Sequence record: MK629529.1
DNA: 5,494 nt
Source: Escherichia phage Lilleto
Reading direction: 5' to 3' (one strand)
Of the stretch, positions 1,893 through 3,761 are shown in pieces. The first letter of the stretch is position 1, and the number at the start of each line of letters is the position of its first letter. The notes beneath the pieces are model-generated. The model was not told where the DNA came from. It saw only the letters and a list, made by a program, of their open reading frames with translations, and made no database searches. Made by a program: the position numbers and the translations under genes.

Positions 1893-2344
1893 ACTCCAAC
1901 GAATCTGCTGTAGCCTTTCAAACTGCAATCGCTTCTATCAAAATGATTCAAGCCTCATCCGTCCTCGACCTTACCGAAGACGACTTCGAATTCTTAACTG
2001 GCGACCGTGTCTGGATTGCTACTGACCGCTCCCGCGCCCGCCGTGCTGTCGAGGCTTGTGTATATGGAACACTGGACTTTGTCGGGTATCCTCGCTTTCC
2101 TGCTCCTGTTGAGTTTATTTCTGCTGTTATCGCTTACTACGTTCATCCGGTCAACACCCAGACCGCTTGTCTCATCATGGAAGGAGCCGAATTTACTGAA
2201 AACATCGTCAATGGCGTTGAATCCCCAGTTAAGGCTTCCGAACTCTTCGCTTTCGTTCTCCGTGTCCGCGCTGGCTGTAAAGACGTCCTCGAAGGTGCCG
2301 AAGACAACATCCGCGCTAAACTCCGTGCACAAGGAATCATGTAA
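1889..2344 (+). CDS. D: External scaffolding protein D
   Basis: 151-aa ORF, near-identical over long stretches to phiX174 D (e.g. WIATDRSRARR.VEACVYGTLDFVGYPRFPAPVEFI). AAAGGA at 1874-1879 upstream of ATG 1889. Stop TAA 2342-2344 overlaps the J start as TAATG. Confidence 0.95.
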   Translation: MNSNESAVAFQTAIASIKMIQASSVLDLTEDDFEFLTGDRVWIATDRSRARRAVEACVYGTLDFVGYPRFPAPVEFISAVIAYYVHPVNTQTACLIMEGAEFTENIVNGVESPVKASELFAFVLRVRAGCKDVLEGAEDNIRAKLRAQGIM

Positions 2345-2351
2345 TGGCTAA
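2064..2351 (+). CDS. E: Lysis protein E (MraY inhibitor), overprinted in the +1 frame of gene D
   Basis: 95 aa from ATG 2064 (MEHWTLSGILAFLLLLSLFLLLSL...); N-terminal hydrophobic domain with the W4/LAFLLLLSL signature of phiX174 E. GAGG at 2051-2054 upstream. Stop TAA 2349-2351. The track ORF 2007..2351 is the same frame with an upstream alternative start. Confidence 0.85.
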   Translation: MEHWTLSGILAFLLLLSLFLLLSLTTFIRSTPRPLVSSWKEPNLLKTSSMALNPQLRLPNSSLSFSVSALAVKTSSKVPKTTSALNSVHKESCNG

Positions 2352-2474: not shown

Positions 2475-3761
2475 ATGTCTAATGTTCAAACTTCTGCCTC
2501 TCGTGATGCAATTGATTTATCACATCTGGTCTTCAACACTGGCGCTATTGGTCGCCTTAAAGTCGCATCATGGACCCCTGTTATCGCTGGTGATTCTTTC
2601 CAGCTTGACGCTGTTGGTGCTTTACGCTTATCCCCTCTGCGTCGCGGCTTGGCTATTGACTCAACTGTTGATTACTTCACTTTCTACATTCCACACCGTC
2701 ATATCTATGGCGATGCATGGATTCAATTTATGAAAACTGGTGTCGCTGCCACTTCTCTTAACCCTGTAACTACTGGCGAATACGTTGATAGCGCCTCTTA
2801 TCTTGGTGTAATCCCTTCTGCTGATGGCAAGGTTCCCAAGTTCCTGCACCAAGGCTATCTCAATATTTACAATAACTACTTCAAAGCCCCTTGGATGGCT
2901 GACCGTACTGAGGCAAACCCCTCCAACTTAAACGACGACGACCGTCGTCACGGCTTCCGCTGCTGCCATCTAAAAAACATCTGGTCCGCACCTCTTCCTC
3001 CTCAAACGGAAATCACTCGCGCTATGACTACTGGCGCTACTTCTATTGATATTATGGGTCTGCAAGCTGCTTACGCCCAACTTCACACTGATCAAGAACG
3101 TGACTACTTTATGCAGCGTTACCGTGACGTAATCTCTTCGTTCGGTGGCAAAACTCACTATGACGCTGATAATCGTCCTCTTCTGCTTATGCGCTCTAAC
3201 TTCTGGGCTTCTGGCTATGATATCGACGGCACTGACCAAACTTCATTAGGTCAATTCTCTGGCCGCGTCCAGCAAACATTCCGTCACTCTGTTCCTCGCT
3301 TCTTCGTACCGGAACACGGCGTTATTATGACTCTTCAGCTCGTACGCTTCCCGCCTACCTGCACTGAGGAAACTCACTATCTCGTCGGCAAAGGCGCACT
3401 AAACTATACTGACCTTGCGGGTGATCCAACTCTTTACGGTAACTTACCGCCTCGCGAAATCGAAATGAAAACTCTCTTCCGTGGCGCTGCTGGCTCTACT
3501 GAAAAAATCAAAATTGCCGAAGGGCAATGGTATCGCTATCATCCTTCTTACGTTGATGGACAATATCACAACCTTCAAGGCTTCCCGTTCATCCAAAATG
3601 GTCCAACTGGCAACATGGAAAACCGTGTACTGATTGACCATAAAAAATACGACGAATGCTTCCAATCACTCCAATTAACTCACTGGAATGCCCAGGCTAA
3701 ATACAATGTCACTGTATATCGACATATCCCGACCACACGTGATAGCATCATGACTTCTTAA
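2475..3761 (+). CDS. F: Major capsid protein F
   Basis: 428-aa ORF with high similarity throughout to phiX174 F (e.g. GALRLSPLRRGLAIDSTVD, HTDQERDYFMQRYRDVISSFGGKT, TTRDSIMTS terminus). AAGGA at 2464-2468 upstream of ATG 2475. Stop TAA 3759-3761. Confidence 0.97.
   Translation: MSNVQTSASRDAIDLSHLVFNTGAIGRLKVASWTPVIAGDSFQLDAVGALRLSPLRRGLAIDSTVDYFTFYIPHRHIYGDAWIQFMKTGVAATSLNPVTTGEYVDSASYLGVIPSADGKVPKFLHQGYLNIYNNYFKAPWMADRTEANPSNLNDDDRRHGFRCCHLKNIWSAPLPPQTEITRAMTTGATSIDIMGLQAAYAQLHTDQERDYFMQRYRDVISSFGGKTHYDADNRPLLLMRSNFWASGYDIDGTDQTSLGQFSGRVQQTFRHSVPRFFVPEHGVIMTLQLVRFPPTCTEETHYLVGKGALNYTDLAGDPTLYGNLPPREIEMKTLFRGAAGSTEKIKIAEGQWYRYHPSYVDGQYHNLQGFPFIQNGPTGNMENRVLIDHKKYDECFQSLQLTHWNAQAKYNVTVYRHIPTTRDSIMTS

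Follow-up and report, generated by a model that had tools for sequence, protein, structure and literature searches.

Protein E serves as the textbook example of a “protein antibiotic”, and bacterial-ghost vaccine technology is built on it; Pro21 is its best-known essential residue, central to the reading of the E–MraY structure. The lysis gene found in the analysed window, a stretch of 5494 nt from Escherichia phage Lilleto, carries a leucine codon at this position. The question raised by this locus is how an E protein devoid of this proline should be understood: as a working lysis protein, a weakened one, a protein acting in another manner, a relic, or an artefact of the data.

The importance of the proline is documented in earlier work. 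In the E protein of phage ID52 the P21A substitution abolishes lysis; the same protein lyses cells without slyD and is countered by mraY overexpression, and the authors cite Pro21 as a sign of a very conserved E transmembrane domain in Microviridae (PMC11126076). According to a review of Tanaka and Clemons (2012), Pro21 of phiX174 E is critical, and MraY is no longer inhibited once the proline is placed elsewhere in the helix (PMC5039524), in agreement with the requirement named in the preliminary description of the window. In papers that cite the 2023 cryo-EM study, the E helix is described as bent and placed in a groove beside MraY helix 9, and one of them, referring to Orta et al. 2023, states that E occupies the MraY active site (PMC12506998). 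By analogy with the inactive P21A variant of ID52-E and the need reported for phiX174, an E with Leu21 would be expected to be dead unless its neighbouring residues compensate.

The window is a complete Bullavirinae microvirus genome of the SECphi17/“Lille” group, whose ORF map shows the standard arrangement A, B, K, C, D, E, J, F, G, H. Near-full-length megablast matches were obtained for Escherichia phages Lilledu (97.7%), lillemer, Lilleput, MG1, Lilleen and SECphi17 (93.3%), followed by Salmonella phage PJNS002 (83% nucleotide identity) and then by the phages ID2, ID18 and G4 (about 79–82%). The close relatives originate from wastewater or sludge and were isolated on E. coli K-12 MG1655, which is named as the isolation host of the Lille phages (PMC7552041), while SECphi17 serves in the literature as a standard test phage in plaque-efficiency assays. 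A quick neighbour-joining tree of the F proteins (gene F at 2475–3761 in the window) places the clade apart from G4, ID2 and ID18, unlike D, E and whole-genome BLAST, by which it is nearest to the G4 group; almost no similarity in G was reported by Olsen et al. (PMC7552041). This discord between F/G and D/E suggests a mosaic or a separate lineage, and the genus assignment is uncertain. Within the clade, the Lilleen E (2064–2357) has 97 residues and a different C-terminal end (...SCKYYG); the F and G annotations of this record overlap and its genome is shorter (5342 nt), so that assembly problems may be present.

The lysis gene lies within the gene of the scaffolding protein, and the following elements have been identified at the locus:

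1889–2344, + strand: gene D, external scaffolding protein, which carries E; annotated in Lilledu, Lilleput and MG1, Pfam gpD
2051–2054, + strand: GAGG, resembling a Shine-Dalgarno sequence, 9 nt ahead of the E start codon
2064–2351, + strand: gene E, lysis protein of 95 residues in the +1 frame inside D, with an ATG start and a TAA stop at 2349–2351

The protein begins with MEHWTLSGILAFLLLLSLFLLLSLTTFIRSTPRPLVSSWK. Its start lies 175 nt (about 58 codons) into D, the same as in ID2 and ID18 and compared to 178 nt in G4 and phiX174, so E sits at the position of the annotated E of G4, ID2, ID18, ID52, phiX174 and alpha3. Both the E start codon and the GAGG columns are unvarying in a MAFFT DNA alignment of 14 genomes. 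Gene J (2344–2430, 28 residues, ATG at 2344) overlaps the final 8 nt of E; the D stop, J start and E stop fall within 10 bases, with the E stop 7 nt beyond that of D. The best promoter-like match in the genome (1819–1848, + strand; TTGACA, 18 nt, TACTAT; 10/12) sits in gene C, some 40 nt upstream of the D start, at the expected position of a putative D promoter that would also drive E. Between J and F, a perfect 7-bp GC-rich hairpin (2439–2456, + strand; GTGGGAC CACG GTCCCAC) precedes a T-rich tail; with a predicted RNA fold of −14.9 kcal/mol (z = −2.3) and a location where phiX174-type phages have the post-J terminator, it looks like a candidate terminator.

E is annotated in none of the seven clade GenBank records (Lilledu, lillemer, Lilleput, MG1, Lilleen, PJNS002 and SECphi17). 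The genes J, K, B and A* are likewise unannotated in the first six of these, and the SECphi17 record is devoid of any annotation. A search of the window E against a database of 5.8 billion proteins gave no Leu-21 E, the best match having 58% identity. The missing annotation together with the absence from the database is probably the reason why the Leu-21 form has escaped surveys of E diversity.

The affiliation of the protein was assessed by similarity searches. With phmmer, the window E matched phiX174 E (8G02_B) at E = 1.7e-9 and ID21 E (8G01_B) at E = 3.3e-9, and HMMER matches to gpE of ID8, G4 and ID11 ranged from 6e-15 to 7e-11. Among 22 E proteins the residues W4, T5, L6, L10–L16, L18, L20, L24, F27, I28, W39 and K40 are invariant, and the conserved N-terminal pattern of the family, W4-T5-L6 followed by the LAFLLLL core, is present in the window E. 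The Pfam family PF04517 (Microvir_lysis) scored 18.8 bits (E = 0.0015), matching in the expected region (residues 36–64) and below the gathering cut-off of 25 bits, compared to 45.4 bits for the E of PJNS002 and 87.2 bits for that of G4; this sub-threshold score, by which the window E has drifted outside the helix too, counts against the reading as a working E. The remodelling of the helix and the divergence of the C-terminal part (2169–2351, residues 36–95) are nevertheless separable, because PJNS002 E has the same helix and scores 45 bits. Judged by its locus, its frame and this significant similarity, the window E is a Bullavirinae lysis protein E by descent, lacking, in its transmembrane helix, the Pro21 that marks the functional class.

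The differences from the classical E are concentrated in three features of the reading frame:

2124–2126, + strand: E codon 21, CTG (Leu), which is CCG (Pro) in classical E
2124–2141, + strand: recoded block, E codons 21–26, LLSLTT instead of the classical PSLLIM; the same in 23/23 clade sequences
2148–2150, + strand: E codon 29, CGG (Arg), which is CCG (Pro) in classical E and PJNS002; synonymous in D (CCC>CCG)

Re-reading the ORF reproduced what had been described for the window at first, namely Leu at 21, Arg at 29 and the next prolines at 32 and 34, with none in residues 1–31; phiX174 E has prolines at P21 and P29. In the D frame, the classical GCC GTC ATT GCT TAT TAT is replaced by GCT GTT ATC GCT TAC TAC. 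Five transitions at D third positions (GCC>GCT, GTC>GTT, ATT>ATC and TAT>TAC twice), all synonymous in D, thus convert E PSLLIM into LLSLTT, and P29R is a sixth D-silent change. Over the region of the block, D reads PVEFISAVIAYYVHPVN in the window and PVEFIAAVIAYYVHPVN in phiX174, with one difference, Ala to Ser; its base is the position whose G>T change gives E L19F in phiX174. The earlier statement that the change is specific to the E frame and leaves D almost untouched thus holds. Leu21 belongs to a block remodelling of residues 21–26 and is not a point change.

The preliminary description had left room for a faulty alignment or a wrong premise about Pro21, and for a proline that would align at position 21 once gaps were placed correctly. 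The alignment was found to be gapless by three methods: (i) MAFFT on DNA; (ii) MAFFT on 22 E proteins, with columns 1–90 free of gaps; (iii) HMMER against 8G02_B and 8G01_B. A rescue of Pro21 by gap placement is rejected on these grounds, and the premise is borne out by the reported need for P21 (PMC11126076 and, in review form, PMC5039524). A sequencing error, mis-assembly or mis-alignment could in principle mimic the loss of a proline, and we assign this explanation a practically negligible probability; nothing in the data speaks for it, and it is refuted by the same bases in 23 independently obtained sequences and by gapless DNA and protein alignments.

The two forms are distributed by lineage. 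All 23 clade sequences, PJNS002 included, carry ...LSLFLLLSLTTFI..., and all 24 classical E proteins sampled from Sinsheimervirus, Alphatrevirus and Gequatrovirus carry ...LPSLLI(M/T)FIP; those of phiX174, G4, ID2, ID18, ID52 and alpha3 read ...LSL(L/F)LPSLLIMFIP.... This split is no random variation. The third-position base of D that sets E codon 21 is C in 24/24 classical genomes and T in 23/23 clade sequences. The clade sequences represent 13 distinct D/E haplotypes, all with LFLLLSLTTFI, and derive from Denmark, China, the Israel-derived SECphi17, Salmonella phage PJNS002 and ENA, Logan and JGI assemblies. The same helix occurs in six GenBank relatives, PJNS002, one JGI metagenome contig and six ENA or Logan contigs, the last recovered via their D protein. 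Leu21, at first treated as peculiar to one genome, is hence a trait of a clade and not a one-off, being common to SECphi17, Lilledu, lillemer, Lilleput, Lilleen, MG1, PJNS002 and metagenomic contigs. The possibility that relatives might normally carry Leu here proved right for the window's own sub-clade and wrong for G4, ID2, ID18 and ID52, which keep Pro21.

Metagenomic collections were scanned with degenerate D-frame patterns that demand an otherwise conserved D motif, so that divergent genomes could be missed by these counts. A pattern with a non-C key base, specifying a non-proline codon, gave 0 matches in IMG/VR and one in JGI metagenomes, which is a clade member. The proline version recovered 18 IMG/VR contigs, all with PSLLI(M/T)FIP, and the IMG/VR and JGI pattern scans contained no helix intermediate between PSLLIM and LLSLTT. 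One IMG/VR copy of the G4 RefSeq genome (L023) encodes Thr26 (LPSLLITFIP) in place of Met26, and this G4 Thr26 is the only partial step toward LLSLTT seen among the classical genomes. Leu21 is the derived state, because it is fixed in one lineage while Pro21 is invariant in 24 classical genomes across three genera.

Whether the altered frame is maintained can be read from D. The second codon positions of E are the third positions of D, and for this reason D silent sites report selection on E. Between the window and PJNS002, D-synonymous codon differences number 3/31 under E residues 1–30, compared to 23/52 upstream (Fisher p = 0.0012) and 17/43 under the E C-terminus (p = 0.007). Within the close clade (12 haplotypes), variable D third positions number 3/31 under E residues 1–30, 28/57 upstream (p = 1.7e-4) and 16/61 under the E C-terminus, the last also differing from upstream (p = 0.013); variable E residues are 2/30 in the helix and 18/61 elsewhere (p = 0.015). 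The classical pair ID2 and phiX174 gives a matching profile, with 3/31 under E residues 1–30, 22/43 upstream and 23/50 under the E C-terminus. Compared to ID2, the silent-site change under E residues 1–30 amounts to 11/30 for the window and 3/31 for phiX174 (p = 0.016), which is consistent with a phase of rapid change after which conservation resumed. The E ORF is open in every clade member, and the +1 frame stays open in 1.4% of synonymous D recodings and in 17.5% of trials if D's own codons are permuted. The new helix is under purifying selection. In principle, a different constraint acting on this part of the D mRNA could also account for the scarcity of synonymous changes under E.

These data bear on the explanation that E is defunct, lysis being achieved by other means and the ORF remaining open only through the constraint on D. 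Such a state would suit a gene left unannotated in every clade GenBank record, and the +1 frame still stays open in 17.5% of the trials in which the codons of D are permuted; yet the D synonymous sites are frozen under the E helix and free upstream, a freeze that D itself does not need, and the start codon and GAGG motif are conserved. No other conserved lysis ORF was found in the search for an alternative, and we know of no second lysis system in a 5.5-kb microvirus. A defunct E is, with these points taken together, very improbable. A very hydrophobic ORF of 98 residues (2437–2733, + strand), listed as a hypothetical protein in lillemer, runs, in a different frame, across the J–F spacer into the start of F. 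As a lysis gene it was rejected, being interrupted by stops in PJNS002, ID2, ID18, phiX174 and alpha3; its frame is uninterrupted in G4, ID52 and the close clade, and it is probably a chance ORF.

The N-terminal segment itself is described by one feature:

2064–2153, + strand: E residues 1–30, a proline-free N-terminal transmembrane helix by AF2, hydropathy and the suppressed D-synonymous change

The mean Kyte–Doolittle hydropathy of residues 9–28 is 2.71. The AF2 model of the window E contains a confident continuous helix at residues 6–30 (pLDDT blocks 82/96/85), and that of the G4 E control a helix at residues 6–26 with lower confidence beyond residue 20; these are monomer models consisting of a helix and a disordered tail, which cannot show a kink or docking. 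The difference between the two predicted helices agrees with a compensated helix and is not decisive. A Foldseek search of the E model against the PDB gave no matches.

Two further codons of the same segment concern the relation of E to the host factor SlyD:

2070–2072, + strand: E codon 3, CAC (His), the residue that the slyD-bypass mutation R3H introduces in phiX174
2118–2120, + strand: E codon 19, TTT (Phe), the residue that the slyD-bypass mutation L19F introduces in phiX174; in D, this base gives Ser for Ala

In phiX174 adapting to slyD-deficient hosts, R3H and L19F compensate for the loss of slyD, and the nt 624 G>T change yields both D A79S and E L19F (PMC3324380). His3 and Phe19 are shared by the window E and G4 E; Phe19 occurs in all Leu-21 E proteins and, among the classical ones, only in G4 itself. 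By analogy, the two residues suggest that the window E may be independent of SlyD.

The nearest systems delimit what has changed. The G4 E (Gequatrovirus; AAL51014) has the same locus in D and 96 residues compared to 95; its residues 1–20 (MEHWTLSGILAFLLLLSLFL), with His3 and Phe19, are identical to those of the window E, and the SSWK motif is conserved. In contrast, G4 has PSLLIM and Pro29 where the window has LLSLTT and Arg29, and the overall identity is 54%. The phiX174 and ID21 E proteins, both known from the YES complex MraY–E–SlyD (PDB 8G02 and 8G01), show gapless full-length homology to the window E (E~1e-9) and share its layout, a membrane helix at the N-terminus and a basic C-terminal part that is disordered; MraY, the presumed target, is present in K-12. 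Unlike phiX174 E, which relies on Pro21 and, unless R3H or L19F arise, on SlyD, the window E is proline-free before residue 32 and has His3 and Phe19 naturally. The E of ID52 (Gequatrovirus) is likewise a protein of the G4 group; it reportedly lyses cells lacking slyD, and mraY overexpression counters it. Unlike ID52 E, in which P21A destroys activity, the clade has Leu21 naturally, together with four changes at 22, 23, 25 and 26. The closest counterpart is the PJNS002 E (an unannotated ORF, 3163–3438 of L007), proline-free in residues 1–28, where only residue 8 differs (Ala for Gly). Unlike the window E, the protein of PJNS002 has retained Pro29 and a C-terminal domain of the classical type (45 bits); the two share 61% identity and their hosts differ.

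We consider it probable, though well short of certain, that the clade encodes a working E, orthologous to the E of phiX174 and G4 and directed against MraY, whose helix has been rebuilt without the Pro21 kink. A working MraY-directed E is favoured most because clade phages have been isolated and plaque formation is their routine assay. The orthology follows from the same position and frame in D, the identity of residues 1–20 with G4 E and the matches to the E chains in the PDB. A difference in the host target was rejected as an explanation at the level of the E. coli gene: the clade host is K-12, whose mraY is an ordinary E. coli gene, and mraY was found in 5425/5426 E. coli genomes. The possibility raised at the outset that E acts without the proline is the favoured one, the Leu-21 helix being fixed in a plaque-forming clade and under purifying selection. 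The searchable literature contained no lysis assay of a clade E and no paper that connects E, MraY or the proline with SECphi17 or the Lille phages.

The course of events may be pictured as follows. A G4-like background with His3 and Phe19 would have predated the block change, and Phe19 may have been permissive. Along the ancestral branch of the SECphi17/Lille/PJNS002 lineage, five D-silent substitutions would then have turned E residues 21–26 from PSLLIM into LLSLTT, and the close clade would have gained P29R later. The small polar residues Ser23, Thr25 and Thr26 replace the proline and might make the helix bend or flex, or offer it a new surface for packing. It is general knowledge of membrane helices that Ser and Thr side chains form hydrogen bonds with the backbone, by which a helix can be bent or loosened, and bending of this kind may compensate for the loss of the proline. 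Such a compensated helix would let its cytoplasmic end still reach the region of the MraY active site, killing would still proceed by the binding and blocking of MraY, and lysis would depend on the clade E.

A retained and attenuated E is an unlikely explanation, although not a far-fetched one. Weak inhibition of MraY would be offset by more or stabler E, brought about by His3 and Phe19, or later lysis would be favoured, and a low-potency allele would be kept. The null phenotype of P21A in ID52-E and the critical role ascribed to P21 of phiX174 E in the review cited above speak for it, as does the presence in the clade of His3 and Phe19, residues which arose in phiX174 on slyD-deficient hosts. 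Both residues are, however, also found in G4, which keeps Pro21, so they are not specific to proline loss; moreover, the clade helix is as conserved as the classical one, unlike a barely functional segment, and the phages form plaques well enough for repeated isolation and standard test use.

It is distinctly unlikely, in our estimation, that the proline-free E represents a second structural solution, with a straight or Ser/Thr-bent helix and a different geometry on MraY or, at the extreme, another site or target with the N-terminal anchor kept. A changed binding mode or target as such, brought about by the remodelled C-terminal half of the helix together with the divergent C-terminal domain, for instance a straight helix docked differently on MraY or an attack on another envelope step, is to be regarded as improbable. 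The substitutions do fall in the segment that runs on from the kink to the cytoplasmic face; it is there that E, in a paper citing the structural work, is said to lie in the MraY active site (PMC12506998); there is more change under E residues 1–30 on the clade branch (11/30 compared to 3/31), and the C-terminus of the window E remains below the Pfam cut-off. Against this, residues 1–20 are identical to those of G4 E and F27, I28, W39 and K40 are invariant throughout the family, which points to the same partner, and in PJNS002 the Leu-21 helix occurs together with a C-terminal domain of the classical type.

The preferred reading, a working E with a rebuilt helix, has consequences for the view of this protein family. 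On sequence grounds, the clade contradicts the generalisation of a Pro21-conserved E transmembrane domain in Microviridae, and the “essential proline” rule seems to depend on the sequence context. If a natural, selected, proline-free E is confirmed, the Pro21 kink would not be an intrinsic requirement for killing by E. The clade would then be a ready-made natural experiment, indicating which neighbouring changes make the proline dispensable and how much freedom exists in the plugging of MraY by a peptide, and it could show whether mraY resistance alleles act against both forms of E. More generally, unannotated overprinted genes can hide functionally important variation, and E of these phages is a case of this kind.
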